A DNA stretch of 64,000 bases from Candidatus Zambryskiibacteriota bacterium. Lineage in GTDB: Bacteria > Patescibacteriota > Minisyncoccia > Phycocordibacterales > WO2-35-19. Every line of letters starts with the position of its first letter. Position 1 is the stretch's first letter. The position numbers and the translations under genes were made by a program. Positions 16,649 through 41,723 of this stretch are shown in pieces. The stretch spans positions 442 through 64,441 of the forward strand of contig QILQ01000043.1 in NCBI GenBank assembly GCA_003233455.1. Direction: 5' to 3'. The notes below the pieces were generated by a model, which was not told where the DNA came from, ran no database searches, and was given only the letters and a program-made list of their open reading frames with translations.

Positions 16649-17111
16649 AGGATTTACTTTGATAGAGCTTCTCGTTGTTATCGCTATTATTGGGATACTT
16701 TCATCTATTATTCTTGGGAGTCTTAATAATGCCAGAGCTAGTGCTAGAGATTCAAAAAGAAAGCAAGAAATGATATCTATGCAAACAGCTCTTGAATTGT
16801 ATTATTTTGATAATGGTGTGTATCCTTCAACTAATGGTTCTTGGCGAGGGGCTGTTACATTTGGTAATTATGGAACAGGTGCAACAGGATATATTCCCGG
16901 GTTAGTTCCCAATTATATACCTGTTTTACCGTTAGATCCAAGTGGTACTAATGATGGATATCTCTATCGTTCTAATGGTACTAACTATAAATTGCTTTCA
17001 CATAAAAGTCCGGAGAGTTATCCTGCCCCTGGGACCAAATTTTATGATTCTGCCAGACCCACTTGGGCATGGAAGCTATGTAGTGGAGAACCTGCTTGTA
17101 GTAGTTGGTAA
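16635..17111 (+). CDS. Type IV pilin (prepilin, class III signal peptide)
   Basis: MKTSKGFTLIELLVVIAIIGIL N-terminus; paralog of 50175-50627. Confidence 0.75.
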   Translation: MKTSKGFTLIELLVVIAIIGILSSIILGSLNNARASARDSKRKQEMISMQTALELYYFDNGVYPSTNGSWRGAVTFGNYGTGATGYIPGLVPNYIPVLPLDPSGTNDGYLYRSNGTNYKLLSHKSPESYPAPGTKFYDSARPTWAWKLCSGEPACSSW

Positions 17112-17140
17112 AATTTATGTTGACTTCTTTTTGGAGTTTG
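17110..17140 (+). promoter_or_regulatory. Near-consensus sigma70-type promoter (TTGACT-16-TAATAT), copy 1 of a 31-bp direct repeat (copy 2 at 17526-17556 upstream of tuf)
   Basis: Identical 31-mer ttgacttctttttggagtttgttaatatata at both sites. Confidence 0.5.
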
Positions 17141-17179
17141 TTAATATATATATATATATTGATTTACACTAGAAATATT

Positions 17180-17395: not shown

Positions 17396-17509
17396 GATTT
17401 AACCCACCTATATGGAGAGTAAGAATAGGAATTTATAGAATAATTTATTCTTTTGATAAAGATTTTATTATTTGTCTTAGGTTTAGACACAGAAAAGATA
17501 TATACAGAA
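17396..17509 (+). pseudogene. RelE/ParE toxin remnant (C-terminal half only: PIWRVRIGIYRIIYSFDKDFIICLRFRHRKDIYRNL)
   Basis: Clear RelE/ParE C-terminal signature in frame lacking any start; upstream frame blocked by TGA. Confidence 0.45.
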
Positions 17510-17525
17510 ATTTATGAATTTTTAT

Positions 17526-17556
17526 TTGACTTCTTTTTGGAGTTTGTTAATATATA
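17526..17556 (+). promoter_or_regulatory. tuf promoter (TTGACT-16-TAATAT), copy 2 of the 31-bp repeat
   Basis: See 17110-17140. Confidence 0.5.
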
Positions 17557-17641: not shown

Positions 17642-18844
17642 ATGGCAGAAGAATTTGATCGTTCAAAACCACATGTAAATGTTGGAACAGTCGGCCATGT
17701 TGACCATGGCAAAACCACTTTAACAGCCGCGTTGCTCAAGATTATTGATATGAATAAGGCGGATGGTTATGGGGCTCGTTTGGAAGAAATTGATAGTATT
17801 GATAATGCACCCGAAGAAAAATCTCGCGGTATTACTATTGCTTTGCATCACAGCGAATATTGGACACCGGAAAGACATTACGCTCACATTGACGCTCCGG
17901 GACACGCCGACTATATTAAAAATATGATTACCGGCGCCGCTCAAATGGATGGTGCGATTTTGGTAGTTGCCGCTACGGATGGAGTGATGCCTCAAACCAG
18001 AGAACATATTTTGCTTGCTAAGCAGGTTGGAGTTCCAAAAATAATTGTGTTTCTTAATAAATGCGATATGGTGGCGGACCAAGATTTAATTGATTTGGTG
18101 GAAGAGGAAATTCGCGAGCTTTTGACTAAAAATCAATATGATGGCGCGGCTACCCCCATTATCAGAGGTTCCGCCCTTAAAGCTTTGGAAGCTAATGATA
18201 TGAATGATGAATGGGCTAAAAAAGTTTTTGAACTTGTGAAAACTCTTGATTCTTATATTCCGTTGCCTGTTCGCGAGCTTGATAAACCATTCCTTATGCC
18301 GATTGAAGATATTTTCTCCATTGAAGGCAGGGGAACCGTGGTTACCGGAAAAATTGAAAGAGGAGAAGTAAAAGTGGGTGAAGAAGTGGAAATAATCGGT
18401 CTTAAAGATGCTCAAAAAACAACCGTTACCGGTATTGAAATGTTTAACAAACAACTTAAGGAAGGCAGAGCTGGAGATAATGCCGGTATTTTACTTCGCG
18501 GTCTCAAAAAAGAAGATGTTCATAGAGGTCAAGTAATCGCTAAACCGGGAACTGTTACTCCCCATACCGATTTTGAAGCGGAAGTTTATATCTTGAAAAA
18601 AGAAGAAGGGGGACGACATACACCGTTTTTCACTGGTTACAAACCGCAATTTTACATCAGAACCACTGATGTTACCGGCGAAGTAACTTTGGCTGAAGGA
18701 GTAGAAATGGTAATGCCTGGAGATACCATTACTTTCAAAGTAAAATTAACAGCACCGGTAGCTCTGGAAGAAAAGCAAAAATTTGCTATTCGCGAAGGCG
18801 GTAAAACTGTTGGTGCTGGAGTGGTAACAAAAATAGTAGCTTAA
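17642..18844 (+). CDS. tuf: Elongation factor Tu
   Basis: [23 protein letters not shown]-domain motifs. Confidence 0.95.
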
Positions 18845-18858
18845 AGATATGGAAAATT

Positions 18859-19242
18859 TTGAAAGAAAACCAATTAAAAAAAGAAAAAAAGACGACTAAA
18901 ACAACAAAGACTAAGGCAAAGAAAAAAGAAGAGCCTATTTCTAAATTGCGTATTAGAGTAATGGCTTATGAATATAAAGTGCTTGACCTTTCGGTTAAGC
19001 AAATTATAGATACGGCTATGCGTTATGATGCCAAAGTGGTTGGACCGGTGCCTTTGCCTACGGAAATTAAAAAGTATACGGTCAATCGTTCTCCTTTCGT
19101 TTATAAAGATGCTCGGGAGCAATTTGAGATGCGAGTGCATCGCAGATTGATAGATATTATCAATCCTTCTCCAAAAATAATGGATTCTTTAACCAATCTT
19201 TCACTTCCATCTGGAGTGAATATTGAGGTCAAGATAGTATAG
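18859..19242 (+). CDS. rpsJ: 30S ribosomal protein S10 with Lys-rich N-terminal extension
   Basis: IRVMAYEYKVLD...PLPTE S10 core. Confidence 0.9.
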   Translation: MKENQLKKEKKTTKTTKTKAKKKEEPISKLRIRVMAYEYKVLDLSVKQIIDTAMRYDAKVVGPVPLPTEIKKYTVNRSPFVYKDAREQFEMRVHRRLIDIINPSPKIMDSLTNLSLPSGVNIEVKIV

Positions 19243-19253
19243 TTACAAAAAAC

Positions 19254-19568
19254 TTGACAAGATATATACAACATATATACTTCTTATATATGGATACTGT
19301 GATATTTAAAATAGATAAAAAACTTAAACAAGCTGCCCAAAAACAAGCTAAAAAGGGAGGTTTTTCTTTATCTGACTATTATAGATCAGTTACTATTCCT
19401 TTGGCGGAAGGGAAAAGTAGGATTGGTTTAATTCGGGAGGAACAGTTAAATGCAAAAACTGTTCGTGAACTTTTAAAGATTTCAAAAGATATTAAAGAAG
19501 GTAAAAATCTATCTCCTGTTTTTGATAATGTAGAAGATGCTATAAATTATTTAAAATGTGCTAAATGA
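19254..19568 (+). CDS. RelB/DinJ-family antitoxin
   Basis: Paralogous to 34590-34853 and 63330-63635 (shared KDIKEGKN...F.NVEDAINYL C-terminus). Confidence 0.55.
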   Translation: MTRYIQHIYFLYMDTVIFKIDKKLKQAAQKQAKKGGFSLSDYYRSVTIPLAEGKSRIGLIREEQLNAKTVRELLKISKDIKEGKNLSPVFDNVEDAINYLKCAK

Positions 19569-19621
19569 GAATAGATTATCACAGAAGATTTGTTAAAAAT
19601 TTTATTAAATTATTTATATAA
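19565..19621 (+). pseudogene. Truncated YafQ/RelE-type toxin remnant (MRIDYHRRFVKNFIKLFI*)
   Basis: Resembles N-terminus of 63640-63900 toxin; stops after 18 codons. Confidence 0.3.
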
Positions 19622-19684
19622 TAATTTAATAATTCAATAACAAAAAATAATCACATCATCCATAATAATTTTATTTTTTAAGAT

Positions 19685-19735
19685 ACTATACAAATGGGAC
19701 GATCGTCCCGTTTGTATAGTCTGTTTTTTATTTTG
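19685..19735 (+). terminator. Perfect 36-bp palindrome ACTATACAAATGGGACGATCGTCCCGTTTGTATAGT followed by T-tract; second copy at 41672-41706
   Basis: GC core stem + U-run; both copies adjacent to TA cassettes in r-protein operons. Confidence 0.5.
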
Positions 19736-19828
19736 AAAATATTGACAAAAAATTTGCAAAAAATTGATAATTCTGTTAATCTATCAAAAGCCAAACGGCG
19801 TTTTTTATTGAGGATATGAATTAAAGAT

Positions 19829-20461
19829 ATGAAATTTACATTAGCTAAAAAAGTAAATATGACCCAGATTTTTGGGGAAGATGGTAAAGTGACGGCAGTG
19901 ACTGTTTTGAATGTGGAGCCTATAGTGGTTTCTCAAATTAAAACTAAAGAAAAAGATGGTTATAGTGCGGTACAGGTAGGCACTGGTTCTCGCAGAGAAA
20001 AAAACACTCCAAAACCTGTTTTAGGACATTTGAAGGATGTTCCTATGCCTGAAGGAAAGAAGGGAAGTTTCGCTGTTCTTAAAGAATTTAGATTAGAGGA
20101 TACTTCTTCTTTAAACAAAGGGGATAATATGGAGGTAGATACTTTTACTATTGGCGATAAAATTGCTGTTTCTGCTATATCAAAAGGTAAAGGTTTTCAA
20201 GGAGTGGTTAAAAGACATGGCTTCCATGGTGGTCCTCGTTCTCATGGACAAAAACATTCTGAAAGAGAGCCGGGTTCTATTGGTGCCACCGGACCTCAGA
20301 GAGTTTTTAAAGGAGTAAAAATGGCTGGTCGGATGGGAAGCGATAAGGTAACGGTGAAAAATTTAAAAGTGGTTGCCATAGATAAAGAAAACAATATAAT
20401 GATGGTCTCCGGTGCGGTGCCGGGCAGAAGAGGAACACTGGTTGAAATTCGCTCAGTTTGA
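19829..20461 (+). CDS. rplC: 50S ribosomal protein L3
   Basis: L3 family blocks (KGKGFQGVVKRHGF). Confidence 0.9.
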   Translation: MKFTLAKKVNMTQIFGEDGKVTAVTVLNVEPIVVSQIKTKEKDGYSAVQVGTGSRREKNTPKPVLGHLKDVPMPEGKKGSFAVLKEFRLEDTSSLNKGDNMEVDTFTIGDKIAVSAISKGKGFQGVVKRHGFHGGPRSHGQKHSEREPGSIGATGPQRVFKGVKMAGRMGSDKVTVKNLKVVAIDKENNIMMVSGAVPGRRGTLVEIRSV

Positions 20462-20516
20462 AAATTTTAAAATTGATACATTTAATGAAAATTCTAAATT
20501 GAAAATTTAAATCATC

Positions 20517-21176
20517 ATGGAAGCGACAATATATAATCAAACAGGTAAAGAAGAAGGAAAAATAAAACTTCCGGAAAAAGTTTTCGGTTTATCTTGGAAT
20601 ACAGATTTGGTGCATCAAGTAGCCACTTCTATGATGGCAAACAAAAGAATTCCTATCGCTCATACAAAAAACAGAGGTGAAGTTTCTGGTGGTGGCAAAA
20701 AACCATGGAGACAAAAAGGCACCGGCAGAGCTAGACATGGTTCAAGAAGAAGTCCTATTTGGGTTGGTGGTGGAGTTACTCATGGACCCAGAAATGACAA
20801 AGACTATTCAAAAAAAATCAATAAAAAAATGAAAGTCAAAGCTCTTTTTACGGTGCTTTCTCGCAAATTCAAGGAGGGAGAAGTGATTTTTATTGATAAT
20901 ATTTCTTTGAAAGCTCCAAAAACAAAAGAAGCGAAAAATATAATAAATTCTTTATCAAAAATAAAAGAATTAAGTTCTATCACCAGAAGAAAAAATGCCG
21001 CCTTTATCGCTCTTCAACAAAAAAATGAAAATATTTTAAAAAGTTTTAGTAATTTTGGTAATTTAGAAATCGGTCAATTGAAGGATTTGAATGTTTTAGA
21101 CCTTTTGCAATACAGATATCTTGTTGTGACTGATCCGGAAAAATCAATAACAATTCTTTCTTCCAAGATAAAATAA
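20517..21176 (+). CDS. rplD: 50S ribosomal protein L4
   Basis: WRQKGTGRARHGS motif. Confidence 0.9.
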   Translation: MEATIYNQTGKEEGKIKLPEKVFGLSWNTDLVHQVATSMMANKRIPIAHTKNRGEVSGGGKKPWRQKGTGRARHGSRRSPIWVGGGVTHGPRNDKDYSKKINKKMKVKALFTVLSRKFKEGEVIFIDNISLKAPKTKEAKNIINSLSKIKELSSITRRKNAAFIALQQKNENILKSFSNFGNLEIGQLKDLNVLDLLQYRYLVVTDPEKSITILSSKIK

Positions 21177-21181
21177 AAATT

Positions 21182-21469
21182 ATGACAATAGATTTAAAAG
21201 CAAAATACGCGAATATTTTATTAAGACCCCGTATTACCGAGAAGGCTAATTCTATGGCAGATAAAAATATTCACACTTTTGAAATTGCGTCAAAGGCGAC
21301 CAAAAAACAGGTTATTGAAACAATTAAAGCTTTTTATAAAATTTCTCCCGTGAAAGTGAATATCGTTAAAAATCCCGCCAAGAAAGTTTTTATAAAAGGA
21401 AAGAAAGGTGTTAAAACAGGAGTGAAAAAAGCTTATGTCTATTTAAAAGAAGGAGATAAGATAGAATAG
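21182..21469 (+). CDS. rplW: 50S ribosomal protein L23
   Basis: LLRPRITEKA; synteny rplD-rplW-rplB. Confidence 0.9.
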   Translation: MTIDLKAKYANILLRPRITEKANSMADKNIHTFEIASKATKKQVIETIKAFYKISPVKVNIVKNPAKKVFIKGKKGVKTGVKKAYVYLKEGDKIE

Positions 21470-21483
21470 TTCAAAATAAAAAT

Positions 21484-22332
21484 ATGGCAATAAAAAATTA
21501 CAAACCAACATCAAAATCAAGGAGACATATGTCTATTGTCTCTTATAAATCTATTTTAACTAAAAACAAACCTCTAAAAGCTCTCACTTCCGGCGTGAAG
21601 AGATCTGTCGGACGAAATAATGCGGGCAGGATAACAACGCGTCATAAAGGTGGCGGTCATAAGAGATTATTTAGAGAGATTGATTTTAAATACAACAAAA
21701 TCAATATTCCTTATAAAATAACTTCTGTGGAATATGACCCAAATCGCACCGGGTTTATCGGTATTGCTGTTTATGAAGATGGCGAGAAAAGATATATTCT
21801 TTTGCCAAAAAATATTAAAGTTGGCGAAAAACTTTTAACAGGAGAAAAGGCGGAAATAAAACAAGGTAATAGATTACCGTTAAAGAGTATACCGACTGGC
21901 GCTTTTGTTTATAATGTGGAACTAAAACCTCTTGGGGGAGCGAGAATTGCTCGTTCAGCCGGCAATTTTGTTCAAGTATTGGCTAAGGATGCTGGTTATG
22001 TTGATTTAAAAATGCCATCTAGTGAAATACGCAAAGTGAAAGAAACTTGTTGGGCCAGTATTGGCACGGTTTCAAATGAAGAAAAAAGACTTGAAAATTA
22101 TGGAAAGGCCGGAAAAAGCAGGTGGAAAGGTATTCGTCCAACAGTACGAGGTACCGCAATGAATCCGGTTGACCATCCGCATGGTGGCGGTGAAGGTAGG
22201 CAAGGCAGAGGCAGGAAACGAGCGGTTTCTAAATGGGGTAAACCAACCGGTAAAGGTCAAAAATCGCGACGCACTAAAAAATATTCTGATAAATTTATTA
22301 TTAGCAGAAGAAAAGTAGGCAAGAAGAGATAA
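21484..22332 (+). CDS. rplB: 50S ribosomal protein L2
   Basis: GTAMNPVDHPHGGGEG motif. Confidence 0.95.
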   Translation: MAIKNYKPTSKSRRHMSIVSYKSILTKNKPLKALTSGVKRSVGRNNAGRITTRHKGGGHKRLFREIDFKYNKINIPYKITSVEYDPNRTGFIGIAVYEDGEKRYILLPKNIKVGEKLLTGEKAEIKQGNRLPLKSIPTGAFVYNVELKPLGGARIARSAGNFVQVLAKDAGYVDLKMPSSEIRKVKETCWASIGTVSNEEKRLENYGKAGKSRWKGIRPTVRGTAMNPVDHPHGGGEGRQGRGRKRAVSKWGKPTGKGQKSRRTKKYSDKFIISRRKVGKKR

Positions 22333-22334
22333 TT

Positions 22335-22742
22335 ATGAATAATATAAAAATTTCACTGATTGATATTGATAAAAGAAAAAAGCTGAATATAAGATCCGGA
22401 GATACAGCGCGTGTTACTCAAAAAATAATTGAAAAAGATAAAAAGACCGGCAAGCCAAAAACCAGATTGCAGGATTTTGAAGGATTATGTTTGGCAGTCA
22501 AGCACGGTAAAGAAGCCGGAGGCACTTTTACTTTGAGAAAAGTGGCGTCAGGGGTGGGAGTTGAAAGAATTTTTCCAATTTATTCTCCAATGATAGAAAA
22601 AATAAAAATAATTAAACGCTCCAAAGTTCGTCGCGCCAAACTTTATCATATTCGTGATAAAGCGGCTAAAGAAATTCGTCGTCAAATGAGAAATGTCAGA
22701 GCTTTACCTAAAGTGGAAGAAATTGAACTTGACACAAAATAA
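22335..22742 (+). CDS. rplS: 50S ribosomal protein L19 (unusual position directly after rplB)
   Basis: RSGDTARV...FEGLCLAVKHG...GVGVERIFPIYSP...VRRAKLYHIR matches L19. Confidence 0.8.
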   Translation: MNNIKISLIDIDKRKKLNIRSGDTARVTQKIIEKDKKTGKPKTRLQDFEGLCLAVKHGKEAGGTFTLRKVASGVGVERIFPIYSPMIEKIKIIKRSKVRRAKLYHIRDKAAKEIRRQMRNVRALPKVEEIELDTK

Positions 22743-22841
22743 CTCCTTCACTCATTCATTCACTCACTCTTCATTTTTGGTCTACTAATGGGAACACCTC
22801 ACCCCTCGCTTCGCGTAGGAGAGGGGAAAGAAAAACTTAAC
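22728..22841. repeat. 114-bp direct repeat copy 1 (rplS 3' end + GGGTGAGG palindromic element); copy 2 at 23668-23784
   Basis: Near-identical (3-bp indel) copies flank the HD-domain gene. Confidence 0.75.
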
Positions 22842-22893: not shown

Positions 22894-23541
22894 TTAAAGC
22901 ACTTTTAGATTTTCTGCAATTTTTAACATTTCAGAAATACTCTTGTCTTCTAATGATTCTTTCACATTATTCCAAAGAGCAAGATTTGTTTTTGCCCAAT
23001 TCAAATATTTTGTTTTTGCTAAATCAGTATAAAAATAAATTCCTTCGTCCAGTAATTTATTTTGTTCAGAAGTAATTTTATTTGCTAGCTTTTGTATATC
23101 TATTTTATTTTGTTTGATATAATTATTTGTAAATAAAATTGGTGTAATTGGTAAAGACTTGAACAAAGTATCGGCATCACTTAATGATTTTCCTTCATTT
23201 GAAATATTTTGATTTCTAATTGCAGTATGAGCTTCCATAATTATATTTTCAATTTTGATGATTTCCTCATCAGAATATCCGCTTTTAATCAAAATATTAT
23301 TACGGTAACTATTCGCTTCTTCAGGTTCAGAATTAACTTTTACAATATAATTCAAATCATGAACAAGTGCCGCTGACTCAACAAAAAATAAATTGGCGTT
23401 GATTGATTTAGCAAAAACAATTGCTTTATTTTTTACAAAAACAATATGGTGCCATCCATGAAAAAGTAGTTTTTTACTTTTTTTTAAGTATACCTTTTCA
23501 AGGTTTAAAGTTAAATTATTTATCTTGCTTTTTTGTTTCAT
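22894..23541 (-). CDS. HD-domain phosphohydrolase-like protein
   Basis: HGWHH...VHD...SDAD matches H..H/HD/D motif set of the HD superfamily. Confidence 0.55.
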   Translation of the reverse strand: MKQKSKINNLTLNLEKVYLKKSKKLLFHGWHHIVFVKNKAIVFAKSINANLFFVESAALVHDLNYIVKVNSEPEEANSYRNNILIKSGYSDEEIIKIENIIMEAHTAIRNQNISNEGKSLSDADTLFKSLPITPILFTNNYIKQNKIDIQKLANKITSEQNKLLDEGIYFYTDLAKTKYLNWAKTNLALWNNVKESLEDKSISEMLKIAENLKVL

Positions 23542-23667
23542 AACCCAGGTGCACCAATCTTTTGTTATATATTATACAAACTCAATATATAATTATTACA
23601 TAAACTGTAAATAATCATACTATCAAGATTATTTTACTGATTTTTATAAAATTATGCAACAAAAATA

Positions 23668-23784
23668 CTTGACACAAAATAACTCCTTCACTCATTCATT
23701 CACTCACTCTTCATTTTTGGTCTACTAATGGGAACACCTCACCCCTCGCTTCGCGTATAAGGAGAGGGGAAAGAAAAACTTAAC
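23668..23784. repeat. Direct repeat copy 2 (see 22728-22841)
   Basis: Direct comparison. Confidence 0.75.
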
Positions 23785-29172: not shown

Positions 29173-29708
29173 ATGAGTAAACAACAAATACAAGAAAGTA
29201 GAAATTGGTATGCCATCCATACTTATTCCGGTTATGAGAATGCGGTAACCAGAAACCTTATGAGTCTTTAGGTATGGAAGACAAAATTTTTGATGTTATT
29301 GTCCCAACTGAAAAAAAAATAAAAATAAAAGGTAATAAAAGAGTTGAAGAAAAAGAAAAAATTTATCCTGGTTATGTTTTGGTGAATATGATTGTTACCG
29401 ATGATTCATGGTATGTAGTCAGAAATACACCAAGAGTGACTGGTTTTGTTGGTGCTGGGGTTTTTCCGGTGCCTCTCGCTCAAAAAGAAGTAGATGAACT
29501 TTTTAAGAGAATGAATTCAGATAAAGTTAAACATAATATAGATTTATCTTTAGACGATGCTGTTAAAATTGTTGACGGACCGTTTAAAGATTTGGAAGGT
29601 AAAGTGGGGGAGGTGGATGAAGAAAGGGGTAAAGTCAAAATATTAGTGCCGATGTTTGGTAGAGAAACACCGGTAGAGTTGGATTTCTTGCAAGTGAAGA
29701 AGATTTAA
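29173..29708 (+). CDS. nusG: Transcription antiterminator NusG, interrupted by a frameshift near 29269-29274 (N-terminal 32 aa in one frame, rest in +2 frame)
   Basis: MSKQQ..WYAIHTYSGYEN (frame A) then SLGMEDKIFDVIVPTE...PGYVLVNM, KOW domain (frame B); TAG-gt-ATG junction. Confidence 0.7.
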
Positions 29709-29834
29709 TTGACTTAATTTTTTATTTAAGTTAATATCATGTTTCGTCGAAAGCGAATTTGCAAAAGTTCTCGGGTCGCTTCTTACAGAGCTCAACCAGA
29801 CTTTTAAAATTCATTTTCGGCTTCACATTCAATT

Positions 29835-30260
29835 ATGGCAAAGAAAATCACCAAAAAAATAAAATTAGTTATAGCGGCAGGTAAAGCAACACCTGCTCCT
29901 CCTGTCGGCACTGCTTTGGGTCCGGCTGGTATCAACATCGGTGAATTTGTTACTAAATTTAATGAGGCTACCAGAGAGATGACTGGTGCTTTAGTGCCAG
30001 CTGAAATTTCTGTTTATGAAGATAGGACTTTTGATTTTATATTAAAAACTTCGCCTGCTTCAAGTCTTATTATGAAGGCGATTAACATTAAAAAAGGTTC
30101 GGGCAAAACTCCAGTTCAGAAAGTTGGATCCATTACTCGCCAACAATTGGAAGAAATTGCTCAAACAAAAATGGTAGACCTAAACGCCACCAATTTGGAA
30201 GCAGCTGTTAAAATTATCGTCGGCACTTGTCAAAGTATGGGAGTGGAGGTGAAGGGATAA
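29835..30260 (+). CDS. rplK: 50S ribosomal protein L11
   Basis: PPVGTALGPAGINI motif. Confidence 0.9.
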   Translation: MAKKITKKIKLVIAAGKATPAPPVGTALGPAGINIGEFVTKFNEATREMTGALVPAEISVYEDRTFDFILKTSPASSLIMKAINIKKGSGKTPVQKVGSITRQQLEEIAQTKMVDLNATNLEAAVKIIVGTCQSMGVEVKG

Positions 30261-33930: not shown

Positions 33931-34188
33931 ATGAAAACTAAAAAGACAAAAAATAATAAAGTAATAAATTTACCTGTACTTATTGAGCAAGATGAAAACG
34001 GGATGTTTGTTGGATCTGTGCCATCTTTACGCTCTTGTTATACTCAAGGTAAAACTCTTGAAGAACTTTATAAAAACCTAGAAGAAGTGGTTGAGCTTTG
34101 TACTGAGGCAGATAAAGAATTTTTTGGAAATAAAATCTATAGCAATAAAATTATAGGATTTCAAAATCTTTCTTTTTCACTTCGTTAA
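33931..34188 (+). CDS. hicB: HicB-family antitoxin
   Basis: IEQDENGMFVGSVPSLRSCYTQGKTLEELYKNLEEVVE matches HicB (UPF0150). Confidence 0.6.
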   Translation: MKTKKTKNNKVINLPVLIEQDENGMFVGSVPSLRSCYTQGKTLEELYKNLEEVVELCTEADKEFFGNKIYSNKIIGFQNLSFSLR

Positions 34189-34415
34189 TGTCACATTTAT
34201 CACCAATTTCACCAAAAAAACTCATAAAACTTTTAAAAAATGAGGGCTTTGTTTGTGTTAAAATAAAAGGAAGTCATCATTTTTTCTTGAATAATATTGA
34301 TAAAAGAACTACTTCTGTACCACTGCACGGTAATAAAGATATTGGGGTGGGACTTTTGCATAAGATTATTAAAGATATAAAAATGTCTGTTGAAAATTTT
34401 AAAAAGAAATTATAA
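34188..34415 (+). CDS. hicA: HicA-family toxin (mRNA interferase)
   Basis: KLLKNEGF...KGSHHFF...TSVPLHGNKDIGVGLLHKIIKDI matches HicA. Confidence 0.6.
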   Translation: MSHLSPISPKKLIKLLKNEGFVCVKIKGSHHFFLNNIDKRTTSVPLHGNKDIGVGLLHKIIKDIKMSVENFKKKL

Positions 34416-34426
34416 AAGTGGAGTGT

Positions 34427-34456
34427 CCTAATTGGGGGGTGAATTTAGCCTAATTG
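34427..34456. repeat. Motif CCTAATTGGGGGGTGAATTTAGCCTAATTG; inverted near-identical copy at window end 63978-64000
   Basis: 22/23 identity to reverse complement of 63978-64000. Confidence 0.5.
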
Positions 34457-34589
34457 TAATTTTTTTGGAATACCACCTGAACCAGAACCACACAATGCTT
34501 TAAATGGTGCTATGACAGCTTATGAACTTTTTAAAAAATTAGAAAATAATGTTTGACATAAATTAACCGTTGTATATACTTTAGATAAT

Positions 34590-34853
34590 ATGAAAACTGT
34601 ATTAAATGTAAAAATGCTAAAAAAGGAAGCACAAAAAATTGCCAAAGAGGCTGGTATTCCTCTGAGTCTTGTGGTAGATAATGGATTGAGAAAATTTGTA
34701 GCTCGCAGAGCAATTACCGTTGAAGCGCCACTTATTCCAAATGCAAAAACTGCCAAGATTTTGGATAGAGTTTTGAAAGATATCAAAGAGGGAAAAAATA
34801 TTGAAGGACCATTCTATTCTGTAGAGGAATTTATGAAAGGTCTTAAATCCTAG
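34590..34853 (+). CDS. RelB/DinJ-family antitoxin
   Basis: Paralog of 19254 and 63330 ORFs. Confidence 0.55.
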   Translation: MKTVLNVKMLKKEAQKIAKEAGIPLSLVVDNGLRKFVARRAITVEAPLIPNAKTAKILDRVLKDIKEGKNIEGPFYSVEEFMKGLKS

Positions 34854-34862
34854 CTTTGAATT

Positions 34863-35126
34863 ATGTTGCTCGTTTACAGGCACAAAAAATTTTCTAAGGA
34901 ATTTAAGAAGCTTCTTAGGGTTGTTCAAGAAAAATTTGAGCAAAAAATAGGAATTTTTGTCATAGATCAGTATTCGGTTGGATTTAATAACCATGGTCTA
35001 AAAAGGAAATATAACGGTTGTAGGAGTATTGATATTACTGGAGATTATAGGGCAATATATTACATAAATAACAGTATTGCAATTTTTATCCATATAGGCA
35101 CTCATCATCAGCTTTATGGAAAATAA
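34863..35126 (+). CDS. YafQ/RelE-family toxin
   Basis: C-terminal IHIGTHHQLY (GTHSDLF-like); paralog of 63640-63900. Confidence 0.6.
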   Translation: MLLVYRHKKFSKEFKKLLRVVQEKFEQKIGIFVIDQYSVGFNNHGLKRKYNGCRSIDITGDYRAIYYINNSIAIFIHIGTHHQLYGK

Positions 35127-36831: not shown

Positions 36832-36947
36832 ATAAAATATACAATATTCCTTGTTTTAATTTTTTTAGATTGACAATATAGGGTTATTTGATAGTATTGT
36901 GAGCAAGCTCTAAGGAGCTTTTAATTTGCAAAAGAAATAAACAGATT

Positions 36948-37289
36948 ATGTCACGATCACTTAAAAAAGGCCCTTATGTTGATGAAAGGGTGCTCAAAAA
37001 AATAGAAGGCAAAAAACCTGCAGATACTGCGGTTATTAAGACTTGGTCTAGAGCTTGTGCTATTGCTCCTGAGATGATTGGTTTCACTTTTGGAGTGCAT
37101 AATGGCAGGGAACATATTGAAGTTTTTGTCACAGAAGATATGGTTGGTCATAAACTTGGAGAATTTTCTTTGACTCGCAAATTTATAAAACATGGAGGTA
37201 AGATGCAAAAAGAACTTGAAGCCAAGAAAAAAGAAGATGAAATAAAAGCGGCTAAATCCGCTAAAGCGACATCTGAATCAAAAAAATAA
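36948..37289 (+). CDS. rpsS: 30S ribosomal protein S19 with Lys-rich C-terminal tail
   Basis: SLKKGPYVD...[28 protein letters not shown]. Confidence 0.85.
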
Positions 37290-37405
37290 GTTAAACATAC
37301 AAATATGCAAATGATGCAAATAATACAAATGAATGCTAATCCATATCCAAATTATATTCGTAGTTATTCGTTGATTAGTATAATTAGTAGATTGGTATAT
37401 TAAAA
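37290..37405. repeat. ~115-bp intergenic element copy 1, starts at rpsS stop codon (copy 2 at 39752-39865)
   Basis: Near-identical (1 mismatch) to copy 2; contains conserved 32-codon [35 protein letters not shown]. Confidence 0.7.
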
Positions 37406-37443
37406 CGGCACAATTAAATAGCTATAGACAATCTCCCAGAAAA

Positions 37444-37797
37444 GTGAGATTAGTAGCCGATACCATTAGAGGTATATCTACCAAAGAAGCTAGAATTAAA
37501 TTGGATTTTATAACTAAACGAGCCGCTGGTCCGTTAGGTAAACTTCTAAACTCCGCTATTGCTAACGCGAAAAATTTAGGTGCTGATATGGATAATCTTT
37601 GGATTAAAACTATTACTGTTAATGGTGGCAGAATATTATACAGACGCAGACCAGTTTCTCACGGCTCGGCTCATCCTATTCGTAAACGCACTTCGCGTAT
37701 TACTGTTGTTTTGGCGGAAAAACAAAAAACCGCAACTCAAAAAACCAAATTAGAAGCTGAAAAATTCGCGCTTAATCAACCAACAAGTAAAAAATAA
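37444..37797 (+). CDS. rplV: 50S ribosomal protein L22 (true start probably ~35 nt upstream at a non-ATG codon)
   Basis: Upstream in-frame sequence encodes ...SYRQSPRKVRLVADTIRG, the conserved L22 N-terminus, with no ATG. Confidence 0.8.
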   Translation: MRLVADTIRGISTKEARIKLDFITKRAAGPLGKLLNSAIANAKNLGADMDNLWIKTITVNGGRILYRRRPVSHGSAHPIRKRTSRITVVLAEKQKTATQKTKLEAEKFALNQPTSKK

Positions 37798-37801
37798 AAT
37801 T

Positions 37802-38461
37802 ATGACTCACACAGTACACCCATATGCTCATAGATTAGGTATTATTCGCGATTGGAAATCGCGTTGGTTTGAGGTGAAATCCAAATATAAAGAAAATTTA
37901 AAAAAGGATGTCCTAATTTTTGAATATCTTAAAAAGCGTCTAAAAGGATTTTTTGTAAATTCTATTGAAATTGAAAGAAGTGTTAAAACTTTTAGAATTA
38001 TTATTGAAACCTCTCGTCCCGGACTTATTATTGGCAGAAGTGGCGAAGGTATGAATAAACTTAGAGAAGACATTATTCATTTTATAAAGAAACGCGATTT
38101 AAATTCTAGAGAAGAATTAAAAATAGATGTGAAAGAGGTAAAATCACCGGAATCAAATGCTATGATAGTAGCTCAAATGATAGCTGAAGGGCTTGAAAAA
38201 AGAATGCCTTTCAGAAGGGTAATGAAAACTATGATTGAAAAAGCTTTTGCTAATCGTGATGTAAAAGGGGTTAAAATTTCTCTTTCTGGTATGCTTGGTG
38301 GTTCAAAAATGGCTAGATTAGAGTCTAAAAAGATTGGTCGAATTCCTTTGCAAACATTACGTGCCGATATTGATTATGCAAAATATGAAGCTCTTCAACC
38401 ACTTGGAAAAATCGGCATAAAAGTTTGGATTTATAAAGGTGAGATTTTTGATAAAAAATAA
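37802..38461 (+). CDS. rpsC: 30S ribosomal protein S3
   Basis: KH domain RPGLIIGRSG. Confidence 0.9.
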   Translation: MTHTVHPYAHRLGIIRDWKSRWFEVKSKYKENLKKDVLIFEYLKKRLKGFFVNSIEIERSVKTFRIIIETSRPGLIIGRSGEGMNKLREDIIHFIKKRDLNSREELKIDVKEVKSPESNAMIVAQMIAEGLEKRMPFRRVMKTMIEKAFANRDVKGVKISLSGMLGGSKMARLESKKIGRIPLQTLRADIDYAKYEALQPLGKIGIKVWIYKGEIFDKK

Positions 38462-38473
38462 TTCTTAATTATT

Positions 38474-38893
38474 ATGTTATTTCCTAAAAAAATTAAACAT
38501 AGAAAGTGGCAAACTATGCGCAAGAATCCTAAAAAAGTCGGACCGGCAACTCGTGGCATCAAAGTATCTTTTGGGTCGTATGGTCTTAAAGCAATGACTC
38601 CTGGCAGAATTACTTCCAATCAGATTGAATCTGCCAGAAAAGCCATAACTAAATCTATAAGTAAAACTGGTAGAGTTTGGATACGCATTTTTCCTGATAT
38701 GCCTTTTACCAAAAAACCGGCGGAAGTGAAGATGGGTAAAGGTAAGGGAGATTTAGAGGGATATCACGCTAAAGTTTTATCTGGACAAATTATATTTGAA
38801 GTTGATGGAGCCTCAAATTCTTTATCTATTGAGTCTTTGCGTAAAGGTGGCACCAAGATGCCAATAAAAACTAGAATTGTGGCTCGCAATTAA
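38474..38893 (+). CDS. rplP: 50S ribosomal protein L16
   Basis: KHRKWQ...GRI family signature. Confidence 0.9.
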
Positions 38894-38906
38894 AATATTT
38901 AATTAA

Positions 38907-39089
38907 ATGAAAAAAGGATTATTAAAAAAGAATAAAGATGATTTAATGAAAGAATTAGACGAAAAACGTCTTTCTTTGCGCGATATTAGATTTGGTATTG
39001 CTGGAAGTAAAAGTAAAAATGTTAAAGAACAAAAAACAATAAAAAAAGATATTGCCAGAATAATGACTGAATTAAGAATTATGAATTAA
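38907..39089 (+). CDS. rpmC: 50S ribosomal protein L29
   Basis: Size, position, ELRxxxxxELxxxLxxLRF pattern. Confidence 0.8.
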   Translation: MKKGLLKKNKDDLMKELDEKRLSLRDIRFGIAGSKSKNVKEQKTIKKDIARIMTELRIMN

Positions 39090-39094
39090 GAATT

Positions 39095-39367
39095 ATGAAT
39101 GAAAAAAAAGAAAAAAAGAATATAAATAAGGAAAAGAAAACAAACGGTAAAATTTTAAGCGGAGTAGTAATATCGGCTAAAATGCGAGATACTTGTACTG
39201 TTTTGGTTAGCAGATTTATAAAGCATAAAAAATACAGAAAATATTATAAAGTAAGCAAAAAATATAAAGCGCATGATGCTGGCAATATTAAAAAAGTGAG
39301 AGATAAAGTTAAGATAATGGAATGTCGCCCCATTTCTAAAGATAAACATTTTATGATAATAAATTAA
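39095..39367 (+). CDS. rpsQ: 30S ribosomal protein S17
   Basis: GVVISAKMRDTCTVLV...KYKAHD pattern. Confidence 0.85.
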   Translation: MNEKKEKKNINKEKKTNGKILSGVVISAKMRDTCTVLVSRFIKHKKYRKYYKVSKKYKAHDAGNIKKVRDKVKIMECRPISKDKHFMIIN

Positions 39368-39373
39368 AAAATT

Positions 39374-39751
39374 ATGATTCAGCCCCAAACAATAATAAAA
39401 ATAGCGGATAATTCAGGTGCCAAATTGGGGCGAGTATTTAAGGTATTGGGTAGTTCTAAAAAAAGATACGCCAGAGTGGGAGAGTTGGTTATCTTTTCTG
39501 TTCAAAAGGCAGAGCCCCGCAAAGAAATTAAAAAGAAAGCGGTGCTTTTGGGTTTAATTGTTCGCCAAAAAGCTCCACTTAGAAGAAAAGACGGTTCTTA
39601 TATTCGTTTTGATGAAAATGCGGCTGTTGTGGTAGAGCGAAAAAAAGGCGAGATTATTCCCAAAGCCGGAAGAATATTTGGTCCGATACCGAGAGAAATC
39701 GCTGAAGCGGGATATCAAGCTATTGTTTCTTTGGCACCTGAAATAATTTAG
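39374..39751 (+). CDS. rplN: 50S ribosomal protein L14
   Basis: MIQPQTIIKIADNSGAK. Confidence 0.9.
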   Translation: MIQPQTIIKIADNSGAKLGRVFKVLGSSKKRYARVGELVIFSVQKAEPRKEIKKKAVLLGLIVRQKAPLRRKDGSYIRFDENAAVVVERKKGEIIPKAGRIFGPIPREIAEAGYQAIVSLAPEII

Positions 39752-39865
39752 TTAAACATACAAATATGCAAATGATGCAAATGATACAAATGAATGCTAA
39801 TCCATATCCAAATTATATTCGTAGTTATTCGTTGATTAGTATAATTAGTAGATTGGTATATTAAA
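39752..39865. repeat. ~115-bp element copy 2, starts at rplN stop codon
   Basis: See 37290-37405. Confidence 0.7.
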
Positions 39866-39868
39866 TTT

Positions 39869-40093
39869 ATGAAAATCAAAAAAGGAGACAAAGTAAAAAT
39901 AATAACAGGTAAAGACAAAGGTAAAACAGGTGTTGTTTTAAAAGCGTATCCTAAAGATTTTTTAGTATTGGTTGAAAATATAAACAAGAAAAAAATTCAT
40001 CAAAAACCGAGAAAACAAGGAGAAAAAGGTAAAATAATAGAACAATCAGCACCGATACATGTATCAAATGTTAAAAAGATTAAGGATAAGTAA
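39869..40093 (+). CDS. rplX: 50S ribosomal protein L24 (short form)
   Basis: [25 protein letters not shown] motif. Confidence 0.75.
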
Positions 40094-40096
40094 AAT

Positions 40097-40145
40097 AATA
40101 ACCCCACCTCAACCCCTTCCCAAAGAGGAGGGGCGAAAAGAGGAG
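40097..40145. repeat. Degenerate CCCCACCTCAACCCCTTCC...GAGGAGGGG palindromic repeat
   Basis: Family member between rplX and rplE. Confidence 0.45.
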
Positions 40146-40167
40146 AATAAAGATAACAAAAATCAAA

Positions 40168-40716
40168 ATGAAATTAATGAAAGAAAAAACAAAAGAAGCT
40201 TTTAAAGAACTCAAAAAACAATTGGGTTTAAAAAATATTATGCAATCTCCGAAAATTGTTAAAGTGGTTATCAATTCCGGAGTTGGTTCTCTTAGCGATA
40301 AAAAGAAAATAGATATGATAATAGACAGACTGGCTAAAATAACCGGTCAAAAAGCCATTAAAAGAGGAGCTAAGAAATCGGTTGCTTCTTTTAAATTAAG
40401 AGAAGGAGATATTGTTGGAGTTCAAATTACTTTACGAGGAGAAAAGATGTGGAGTTTTTTAGACCGTCTTTTTAGTATCGCTTTGCCTCGGACTAAAGAT
40501 TTTAGAGGTATTTCTCTTAAAGCAATAGATGAAATGGGTAATTATACTCTGGCTATCAGAGAACATACTGTATTTCCGGAAACTTCAGATGAAGATTTAA
40601 AGGATATTTTTAGTTTTGCCGTTACTATTGTCACAAATTTAAAAGGCAAAAATGAAGCTTTGGAATTTTTTAAGGCTCTTAGTTTTCCTTTTAAAAAAGC
40701 TACGACCAAAAAATAA
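40168..40716 (+). CDS. rplE: 50S ribosomal protein L5
   Basis: L5 family blocks. Confidence 0.9.
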   Translation: MKLMKEKTKEAFKELKKQLGLKNIMQSPKIVKVVINSGVGSLSDKKKIDMIIDRLAKITGQKAIKRGAKKSVASFKLREGDIVGVQITLRGEKMWSFLDRLFSIALPRTKDFRGISLKAIDEMGNYTLAIREHTVFPETSDEDLKDIFSFAVTIVTNLKGKNEALEFFKALSFPFKKATTKK

Positions 40717-40778: not shown

Positions 40779-41243
40779 TTGAAATCTTTCCAAAGAGATG
40801 ATAAATTGTTAGTAATTATGGTTATAGATATAGAGCTTACTCTAAATAAATTTGGATTTGGGAAGATTGCTGAAAATAAATTTCAACTGTTTTGGTTGAG
40901 GTTTTCTAAATGGAAGATTCCCAACAAACATTCCATTGATTTAGGAAGAAAAAATGATTATAAGCTAAATTGGTGTGGGGATAAAAATGTGATATACTGT
41001 AAGTCTATGATTCAAAATTATATTGAAAATTACTTAAATAAAGCCCAATACGAAATGATAGATGGTGGAAAGAAATTTTATGCGGAAATAAAAAATTTGC
41101 GTGGTGTTTGGGCTACAGGAAAAACCCTTGAAGAATGTCGACGAAATTTAGCTAATACAATTGAAGGGTGGTTGATTTTAAGATTAAAGAAAAATCTCAC
41201 TATTCCAAACTTTAAAGTACCGAGTGTTCGTTTAAAAGTATAA
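40779..41243 (+). CDS. HicB-like antitoxin (extended N-terminus)
   Basis: C-terminal FYAEIKNLRGVWATGKTLEECRRNLANTIEGWL matches HicB core. Confidence 0.5.
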   Translation: MKSFQRDDKLLVIMVIDIELTLNKFGFGKIAENKFQLFWLRFSKWKIPNKHSIDLGRKNDYKLNWCGDKNVIYCKSMIQNYIENYLNKAQYEMIDGGKKFYAEIKNLRGVWATGKTLEECRRNLANTIEGWLILRLKKNLTIPNFKVPSVRLKV

Positions 41244-41249
41244 ATTTAT

Positions 41250-41471
41250 ATGTCTAAATTAGGTCCAATATCATGGATCAAGTTTGTAAGAAGAATGAGA
41301 GTTCTTAATTTTAGTGGACCATATCAAGAAGGCAAGCATCCATACATGATAAAAGGTAATCTTTCTATTACTATTCCAAATCCTCATGAGAGGGATATTG
41401 GTGTAGATTTATTAATTCGTATTTTAAGACAAGCGGGAATTTCTAGATTAGTTTGGATGAAATTTAAGTAA
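41250..41471 (+). CDS. hicA: HicA-family toxin
   Basis: ...KHPYMIKGNLSITIPNPHERDIGVDLLIRILRQAGIS matches HicA. Confidence 0.55.
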   Translation: MSKLGPISWIKFVRRMRVLNFSGPYQEGKHPYMIKGNLSITIPNPHERDIGVDLLIRILRQAGISRLVWMKFK

Positions 41472-41671: not shown

Positions 41672-41706
41672 ACTATACAAACGGGACGATCGTCCCAAGT
41701 GTGTAG
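41672..41706. terminator. Second copy of TATACAAACGGGACGATCGTCCC palindrome (bidirectional terminator candidate, comFC / hicBA)
   Basis: Matches 19685-19720 palindrome. Confidence 0.45.
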
Positions 41707-41723
41707 TGTTAAATATTTGAATT

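Follow-up and report, generated by a model that had tools for sequence, protein, structure and literature searches.

Small repeated sequences that lie between the genes of bacterial operons have been recognised in several lineages. The ERIC/IRU elements of enterobacteria and the Correia elements of Neisseria resemble miniature inverted-repeat transposable elements (MITEs) and lie within transcription units, and some of them carry promoter-like boxes that alter the expression of their neighbours. The BOX elements of Streptococcus pneumoniae and the STRR sequences of heterocystous cyanobacteria are modular, being composed of short tandem units, and are often intercistronic and co-transcribed. 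Ribosomal-protein operons, for which autogenous control is classical, are among the most conserved and compact of bacterial gene arrays, and long lineage-specific inserts in them are unusual. Here, we describe such an insert, a 116-nt cassette present twice within the rpsS-rplE ribosomal-protein operon of a Parcubacteria bacterium of the candidate phyla radiation (CPR), close to Candidatus Zambryskibacteria. The stretch analysed, referred to throughout as the window, comprises 64,000 nt of contig QILQ01000043.1 with a GC content of 32%. Within a lineage-restricted family of spacers, whose arrays are gained, lost and copied between junctions, these two copies form the youngest pair.

The copies lie at an offset of 2461 nt and are 99% identical, the single mismatch being an A at 37322 in copy A and a G at 39783 in copy B. 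This confirms the near-identical pair with one difference that a first-pass annotation of the window had reported from the letters, and fixes its exact size at 116 nt. Neither blastn nor nhmmer found a further copy, or a partial copy longer than 13 nt, in the 64-kb window, which excludes chance as the source of the repeat. The gene run concerned is rpsS-rplV-rpsC-rplP-rpmC-rpsQ-rplN-rplX-rplE (36948-40716), whose remaining spacers measure 4-13 nt, except for a 74-nt spacer between rplX and rplE that holds a GC-rich hairpin. The same locus, with both copies, is present on a second assembly from the same population, the 39.4-kb Joint Genome Institute (JGI) metagenome contig L001. The elements of the locus are as follows.

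36870-36897, plus strand: promoter of the rpsS-rplE unit (TTGACA-16-TGaTAGTAT), whose transcript would include the cassettes.
36948-37289, plus strand: rpsS (S19), 5' neighbour of copy A.
37289-37404, plus strand: copy A of the cassette, occupying the rpsS/rplV spacer; present also in L001.
37399-37797, plus strand: rplV (L22), 3' neighbour of copy A; in the window an in-frame ATT (37399-37401) is the only candidate start before the conserved domain.
39374-39751, plus strand: rplN (L14), 5' neighbour of copy B.
39750-39865, plus strand: copy B of the cassette, occupying the rplN/rplX spacer; identical in L001.
39869-40093, plus strand: rplX (L24), 3' neighbour of copy B.

The boundaries proved slightly different from those first proposed, which had each copy start exactly at a stop codon and end immediately before the next gene. 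Both copies begin inside a stop codon, the last base of the rpsS TAA (37287-37289) being the first base of copy A and the second base of the rplN TAG (39749-39751) the first base of copy B. Copy B does end directly before its neighbour, 3 nt 5' of the rplX ATG (39869), whereas no normal rplV start follows copy A in the window.

The earlier reading had seen the repeat, a TATAAT and an open reading frame (ORF), and had missed both the internal design of the cassette and its family in relatives. Each copy consists of 9-nt units ending in CNAAT, six in forward orientation followed by five that are inverted, with T-R-C-N-A-A-T as the consensus in this genome. Tandem Repeats Finder (TRF) reports a period-9 tandem repeat of 3.8 copies in each window copy; both halves are degenerate repeats whose short units follow one another head to tail, as in STRR-like or minisatellite spacers. 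Chains of at least four CNAAT/ATTNG motifs occur nowhere else in the 64 kb (0.24 expected by chance), and phased pairs of the 7-mer are confined to the two copies (12 observed against 1.7 expected). The total count of TRCNAAT shows no enrichment (116 against 130 expected), and a regulon-like distribution of this motif was rejected on that count and on the restriction of the phased pairs. The parts of the cassette, with the ends read directly from the sequence, are listed below.

37300-37352, plus strand: forward array of copy A, six CNAAT units (TACAAAT, TGCAAAT, TGCAAAT, TACAAAT, TGCTAAT, TCCAAAT) at a spacing of 8-12 nt.
37356-37395, minus strand: inverted array of copy A, five ATTNG units, reading on the minus strand TACGAAT, AACGAAT, TACTAAT, TACTAAT and TACCAAT, at a spacing of 8-10 nt.
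39761-39813, plus strand: forward array of copy B, six CNAAT units.
39817-39856, minus strand: inverted array of copy B, five units.
37291-37295 and 37400-37404, plus strand: TTAAA ends of copy A.
39752-39756 and 39861-39865, plus strand: TTAAA ends of copy B.

The TTAAA at both ends could possibly be a target-site duplication or a part of imperfect terminal inverted repeats. Taken as inverted repeats, the termini match at 11 of 14 positions (TTAAACATACAAAT against the reverse complement TTTAATATACCAAT), a weak correspondence that follows from the palindromic design of the arrays. The identity between the copies also runs past TTAAA, by two nucleotides (AG) on the left and four (TTTA) on the right, and in L001 it spans AG-TTAAA-core-TTAAA-TTTA.

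The same gene run was compared across about ten relatives' loci, and the split cluster from rpsS to rplE is common to all of them. Compact spacers of 0-18 nt are found throughout in L012 and L023, and over the covered part of L022, a 2.7-kb contig that shares the rplV start of L001 and has nothing inserted at site A (TAA-T-ATG). L018 is compact too, except for a GC-rich hairpin between L24 and L5, and such hairpin repeats occupy the L14/L24 or L24/L5 junction in L014, L018 and L021. AT-rich arrays of the cassette design were found in L008, L016 and L020, the clade that groups with the window in the tree, at the junctions given here.

S19/L22 junction, in L008, L016 and L020: four CNAAT units.
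L14/L24 junction, in L016: four CNAAT units and four ATTNG units.
S3/L16 junction, in L016: three CTAAT units and three to four ATTAG units.
L24/L5 junction, in L008 and L016: forward CTAAT/CCAAT units, then four ATTAG units.
L16/L29 junction, in L020: a mini version.

TRF reports arrays of period 8-9 at three junctions of L016. The family thus delimited comprises AT-rich intercistronic inserts of 40-120 nt, built of degenerate 9-nt units that end in CNAAT, with 4-6 forward units followed by 4-5 inverted ones. Conservation in sister genomes, which the first-pass annotation had put forward as a check, therefore has a composite answer: the exact element is absent from them, and the subclade relatives carry different arrays of the same design in the same operon. 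Strain-level variants of the relatives are essentially identical, and the short-term dynamics of the arrays are not visible from them.

Over about 197 kb of sequence, eight chains of at least four motifs lie in rpsS-rplE clusters (35.8 kb) and none in the 160.9 kb outside, against 0.79 expected overall; occurrence is thus not dispersed over many intergenic regions. The other ribosomal units of the window, tuf-rpsJ, rplC-rplD-rplW-rplB-rplS and nusG-rplK, hold no arrays. A search with a 20-mer from the most complex part of the element in 185,579 species genomes and the JGI metagenome contigs returned six matches of 20-32 nt, all due to chance. Two scans of viral contigs gave nothing meaningful, and the matches from a distant BLAST comparison with phages and plasmids, where there were any, were short and of low complexity. 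The family has been seen only in the rpsS-rplE operon and in this genome's subclade of Zambryskibacteria-like Parcubacteria.

Two observations bear on how the arrays are maintained and how they arise. In the orthologous S19/L22 spacers of L008, L016 and L020, a small sample of three species at one locus, all 16 motif columns are invariant as compared with 11 of the 26 remaining ones (Fisher p = 1.3e-4). None of the four units has changed in its C or its AAT, while the N positions and the linkers differ. Core positions that are kept while spacers vary are the pattern of a protein-binding array, and suggest that the motif is under selection in these spacers. Moreover, arrays at different junctions are paralogous, with significant similarity between them. 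The S3/L16 array of L016 resembles its L24/L5 array with z = 6-8, and the L16/L29 array of L020 resembles the L14/L24 array of L016 with z = 7.7; for comparison, copy B and the L016 array at the same junction give z = 5.7, and the two window copies give z = 62. Given these cross-junction values, copying from junction to junction is recurrent, with the window pair as its newest case. The 11 nt of flank shared by the two copies might reflect two target sites that agree by coincidence or the copying of a whole spacer together with its flanks, and we favour the second. The whole spacer, from inside the stop codon to the base at or before the ATG, would have been copied recently to a junction 2.46 kb away, most likely by short-range non-reciprocal recombination or template switching rather than by a trans-acting transposase.

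The second assembly adds detail on copy A. Over 12.3 kb, L001 and the window differ by 0 single-nucleotide polymorphisms (SNPs) and three internal indels, two of which fall in or at copy A. In L001, copy A contains an additional AA and is followed directly by 18 further nucleotides (ATTTAATATGAATGAAAT) that carry the rplV ATG (MNEITAQLNSY...). Relative to L001 (6459-6480), the window (37399-37444) has an 18-nt deletion that took this ATG. In the window, no ATG, GTG or TTG precedes the conserved L22 N-terminus of rplV; an in-frame ATT (37399-37401) within the cassette end stands there alone, and a start at GTG 37444 would cost about 15 conserved residues. The rplV start of the window could reflect a consensus error, a minor allele that is defective, or a real variant that begins at a rare codon. 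The third indel is a 9-nt in-frame difference at window position 34615 (about 3669 in L001; TGACCCAAA), in an ORF of 87/90 aa beside a YafQ-like toxin gene.

What the arrays might do can be approached from their design and from the way genes start in this genome. The arrays are proposed to form a phased platform with several docking sites for a host factor that recognises sequence, most likely on DNA, because the motif is kept in both orientations at a 9-nt period, with N free to vary, and because the window copies lack RNA structure. The right end of the cassette further carries an extended -10-like box, of a type (TGnTATAAT) that can work where a -35 is missing, 6 nt from the ATG for copy B and rplX and 9 nt for copy A in L001. 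The candidate promoter boxes are these.

39854-39862 (copy B) and 37393-37401 (copy A), plus strand: extended -10-like TGgTATATT.
39832-39837, plus strand: -35-like TTGATT, 19 nt from TATATT.
39840-39845 (copy B) and 37379-37384 (copy A), plus strand: TATAAT, with no -35 at 16-18 nt.

Shine-Dalgarno (SD)-like motifs precede only 7 of 83 ORFs in the window, and the lack of a good ribosome-binding site in the cassette, correctly noted at first pass, is thus the rule across the genome. The -10-like boxes are enriched 5-11 nt upstream of ATGs, which suggests that many mRNAs are leaderless or have short leaders and that expression in this genome is SD-independent. The scarcity of SD-like sites fits a reported loss, the anti-SD motif being absent in about half of Parcubacteria, overlapping the group that lacks uL1 (PMC9297842). 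In the window, rplK has no rplA after it. The distance of the right-end box to the ATG would be typical of such an SD-less, often leaderless genome, and the cassette could serve as a portable module, an internal promoter or a regulatory element, by which expression of the downstream cistron is restarted once a long insert has broken translational coupling. The internal promoter suggested at first pass survives in this modified form: the candidate box is TGgTATATT, while the TATAAT then named is indeed present in each copy and lacks a -35 at standard spacing.

Several points weigh against this interpretation. A consensus scan calls no plus-strand promoter in either copy, no -35 standing at 16-18 nt, and -10-like hexamers are common in DNA of 32% GC. 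A leaderless start cannot work at copy A in the window, which lacks the rplV ATG. The CTAAT/ATTAG arrays of relatives fold significantly as RNA hairpins (z about -3), and the CNAAT family may for this reason lack a single mode of action. The sample is small, with about 10 genomes and roughly 4-5 independent arrays, and the restriction to the operon holds for about 200 kb of sequence. Further, TTAAA direct repeats and imperfect terminal inverted repeats are what a small transposon would leave, and both promoter activity and factor binding are predicted entirely from the DNA letters. Taken as a whole, the account that joins the family, local copying and a docking or promoter cassette is offered tentatively, as one that falls somewhat short of probable. 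Its parts differ in strength: the identity and evolution of the family can be held with good confidence, while the docking or promoter mechanism is possible and on balance doubtful. Rather unlikely as it stands, and stated here as a broader proposal, is that the CNAAT arrays constitute a cis-regulatory system not recognised before and dedicated to this operon, in a Parcubacteria subclade that has lost SD initiation, with a host factor docking between cistrons to set internal starts or cistron output and with cassettes spreading by local copying.

An alternative would place the function in the polycistronic mRNA, where the array could bind a factor (such as a ribosomal protein in feedback, S1, or Rho at a G-poor stretch with periodic C) or serve RNase Y or RNase III as a site that governs processing or stability, and so tune cistron output. 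The cassettes do lie within a transcription unit, with the promoter upstream of rpsS; the genome encodes RNase Y and an RNase J-like enzyme; and confinement to one operon fits the classical autogenous control of ribosomal-protein operons. In relatives, moreover, the half-arrays are forward-only, G-poor and fully unstructured just 5' of the rplV start (MFE, the minimum free energy, about 0), and the CTAAT/ATTAG arrays fold as long hairpins. The window element, however, gives no fold signal on either strand. Its MFE of -15.7 kcal/mol compares with a shuffle mean of -15.5 to -15.7 (z = 0.02 and -0.05), and the reverse strand gives z = +1.05, so that shuffled sequence folds as well as either strand. 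In no pair of facing units are the N positions complementary, which accounts for the missing fold signal. Rfam models give no match over either copy even at E up to 10, and at gathering thresholds they find only tRNAs in the window. A structured RNA was accordingly rejected for the window element, though some arrays of relatives do fold, and the leader-type RNA or processing signal envisaged at first pass finds no support in folding or in Rfam. Further, the motif is kept in both orientations, and CNAAU and AUUNG cannot both be recognised by one RNA-binding factor.

An unstructured ribosome-loading leader, initially favoured, was dropped as well. The accessibility of the start region is 0.61 after arrays as compared with 0.67 at compact junctions (p = 0.37) and is lowest, at 0.41, at the window element, so that arrays do not raise it. 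On a read-through transcript the rplX start would be partly or weakly paired with the cassette end (unpaired probability 0.41-0.53), and it would be free if transcription began at the ATG. A Rho-utilisation-like site was also considered, given six C residues spaced 9 nt apart where G is scarce, and set aside; the dinucleotide is mostly RC and not YC. Overall, an element acting at the RNA level is unlikely.

The cassette could also be read as a MITE-like or foldback-like non-autonomous transposon, with a 105-nt core, imperfect terminal inverted repeats and subterminal TRCNAAT repeats to which a transposase from another locus would bind. Two insertions at TTAAA, each duplicating a 5-bp target, would account for the copies, and only those that fell between a stop and a start codon would have survived. 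The TTAAA direct repeats at both ends of both copies, the 11/14 inverted termini and the multiple inverted subterminal motifs, which are typical of transposon ends, all agree with such an origin, and the 99% identity points to a recent event. When the element and one TTAAA are removed, what is left is a short AT-rich spacer like those of relatives (taaGTTAAATTTAATatg as compared with taaAGTAAATTTTatg in L015). An unrelated, dispersed GC-rich hairpin repeat occupies the same junctions in relatives, which indicates that these junctions tolerate insertions. Against this, only two copies exist in the 64 kb, both in one operon, and public collections hold none beyond the same population. Random transposition cannot yield a family whose arrays all lie within one operon (eight chains as compared with none outside). 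A Pfam scan of about 40 window ORFs revealed no transposase or recombinase, nor did the annotation of L001. The identity beyond the target duplication (AG and TTTA) would be a coincidence of about 1 in 100 to 1 in 1000, or would demand an 11-nt target. Finally, a dead transposon at a fixed site is not expected to conserve its motif columns at orthologous positions while the linkers drift, as these arrays do. A transposon origin is thus quite unlikely. The earlier idea of a recently spread miniature element was right as to a very recent duplication, and a dispersed mobile family is what the two copies and the ORF scan fail to support.

Some other known elements were compared and set aside. GTTAAAC, directly after a stop codon, fits the GTTRRRY of an integron attC, but lies at the 5' end, where RYYYAAC would be expected; the 3' TATTAAA has no partner, and the neighbours are essential ribosomal genes in conserved order. 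The template and variable repeat pair of a diversity-generating retroelement, CRISPR, and the IHF, DnaA, Fur and ArgR consensus sequences gave no fit.

A third possibility is functionless growth of the spacers, in which replication slippage expands 9-nt repeats within the short gap between cistrons, template switching turns them into palindromes and gene conversion spreads them, the result being tolerated and inert. Both halves are degenerate period-9 tandem repeats, as slippage would leave them; the presence of arrays differs among close relatives, which shows them to be dispensable; and two of the three inter-assembly differences are indels in or at copy A. Inert sequence, however, would hardly keep its motif columns while the linkers diverge (p = 1.3e-4), nor is the recurrence of the same 5-mer, in both orientations, in otherwise unalignable arrays accounted for in this way. 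Slippage-prone AT-rich spacers, moreover, occur genome-wide, and the arrays occur in this operon only. Inert growth is, on this evidence, improbable.

That an assembler made the duplicated insertion is very improbable. The exact element is limited to the two sites, and both assemblies come from one population with 0 SNPs between them. An assembly duplication is nevertheless dismissed because both copies stand in the 64.5-kb contig of the one assembly and in the 39.4-kb contig of the other, and because each copy is shorter than a read and flanked by unique sequence; relatives, in addition, carry cognate arrays at the same junctions.

Weakest of all is a small protein gene, for which the following frame was considered.

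37305-37403 and 39766-39864, plus strand: 32-codon ORF, judged spurious.

Although the ORF is intact in both window copies and had been described as conserved, a coding function is practically refuted, since the AA insertion in copy A of L001 breaks the frame (MQMMQK and a stop after 6 codons), the sole difference between the copies is non-synonymous (I to M), an index of 153 billion genes records no such called gene, and related arrays in other genomes hold no such ORF.

The window contains further repeats and gene arrangements that are recorded here in their own right. A second repeat family, dispersed in the window, is a GC-rich hairpin (CCCCTCTCC-loop-GGAGAGGGG) with a C-rich stretch before it and an A-rich tail after it. 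It folds strongly (z from -2.4 to -7.3), and the start codon downstream is highly accessible (0.84). Its sites are the following.

Window: 4821, 7439, 8706, 11172, 22802, 23745, 30272, 60331, 61115, 61584 and 40094-40167 (the rplX/rplE spacer).
Relatives, at L14/L24 or L24/L5: L014, 6946-7010 and 7227-7287; L018, 12175-12250; L021, 6290-6352.

A perfect 91-nt direct repeat (22727-22817 and 23667-23757) starts in the last 16 nt of rplS and brackets a 215-aa ORF (22894-23541, minus strand) without a Pfam match, just upstream of a tRNA-Leu (23857); the region looks like a recent insertion or duplication. A 36-nt palindrome (ACTATACAAAyGGGACGATCGTCCC...) occurs at 19685-19720 and 41672-41707 in copies that are 92% alike. 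The first of these has T-runs on both sides and separates the rpsJ unit from the rplC promoter; it probably acts as a bidirectional terminator. Two shorter pairs of direct repeats lie at 1849-1912 and 2792-2855 (88% identity), upstream of an AbiEii-like gene region, and at 17100-17150 and 17506-17556 (82% identity), upstream of pilin-like genes; both hold promoter-like boxes (GATATAAT and TTGACT-N16-TAATAT). The ribosomal genes of the window are arranged in separate units (17642-22742, 29274-30260 and 36948-40716), namely tuf-rpsJ, rplC-rplD-rplW-rplB-rplS, nusG-rplK and rpsS...rplE, the last with argS before it and neither rpsN nor rpsH after it. Toxin-antitoxin pairs flank the rpsS-rplE unit at 33931-35126 and 40779-41471 (HicB/HicA, a YafQ-like toxin with its partner, and HicB-like/HicA), and are absent from the corresponding positions in relatives.

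The S3 protein of this host occurs on two contigs only, and the next relatives have at most 89% identity. It is the operon-restricted, motif-conserving family, more than the two copies, that commands interest. Cassettes that are confined to one operon, keep their motif and copy themselves would offer a handle on internal cistron expression and balance in SD-poor CPR genomes and, if the proposal is true, an example of how a cis-element spreads without a transposon. Should the cassettes merely be tolerated junk, they would still document a fast turnover of spacers in an essential operon of reduced genomes. Searches of the literature on MITEs of CPR bacteria and on repeats of ribosomal operons brought up no account of such arrays for either, and the nearest comparisons are with systems from elsewhere.

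Like the ERIC/IRU and Correia elements, the cassette belongs to a size class of about 100-150 nt, is imperfectly palindromic, lies between co-transcribed genes and has candidate short AT-rich target repeats. Unlike them, with their tens to hundreds of dispersed copies and stable hairpins, it is present in two copies, has its kin in one operon and shows no fold; stable stem-loops of the ERIC, Correia or REP kind are thus missing, and where those elements have a body of unique sequence, the body of the cassette is a run of 9-nt units. With BOX and STRR it shares an intergenic position and a construction from short tandem units, but those families, with their 45-nt boxB and 7-nt units, are dispersed genome-wide, whereas the cassette consists of convergent arrays of one motif in one operon. 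A small intergenic repeat inside an operon also recalls REP/BIME, and a GC-rich hairpin family of that kind fills the rplX/rplE spacer of this very genome; unlike that family, the cassette is AT-rich, without a stable stem and unrelated in sequence. The leader or autoregulatory RNAs of ribosomal proteins likewise stand inside ribosomal operons, directly upstream of a cistron. Unlike the leaders in Rfam, the cassette matches no family and has no conserved structure, and it is repetitive rather than a mimic of rRNA.

There is also a likeness to arrays bound by proteins, such as the Fur hexamers, the heptads of the omega protein, the ParR/parC iterons and the Fis/UP regions of rRNA promoters: 4-11 copies of a 5-7-nt motif recur, both direct and inverted, with a phase close to one helical turn, and core positions are conserved while spacing positions are free. 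The cassette motif differs from all of their consensus sequences, and an intercistronic site in a ribosomal operon is unusual for them. Overall, the cassette departs from the intercistronic repeats in the very features that define them, and it is in its sequence pattern alone that it agrees with the protein-binding arrays.

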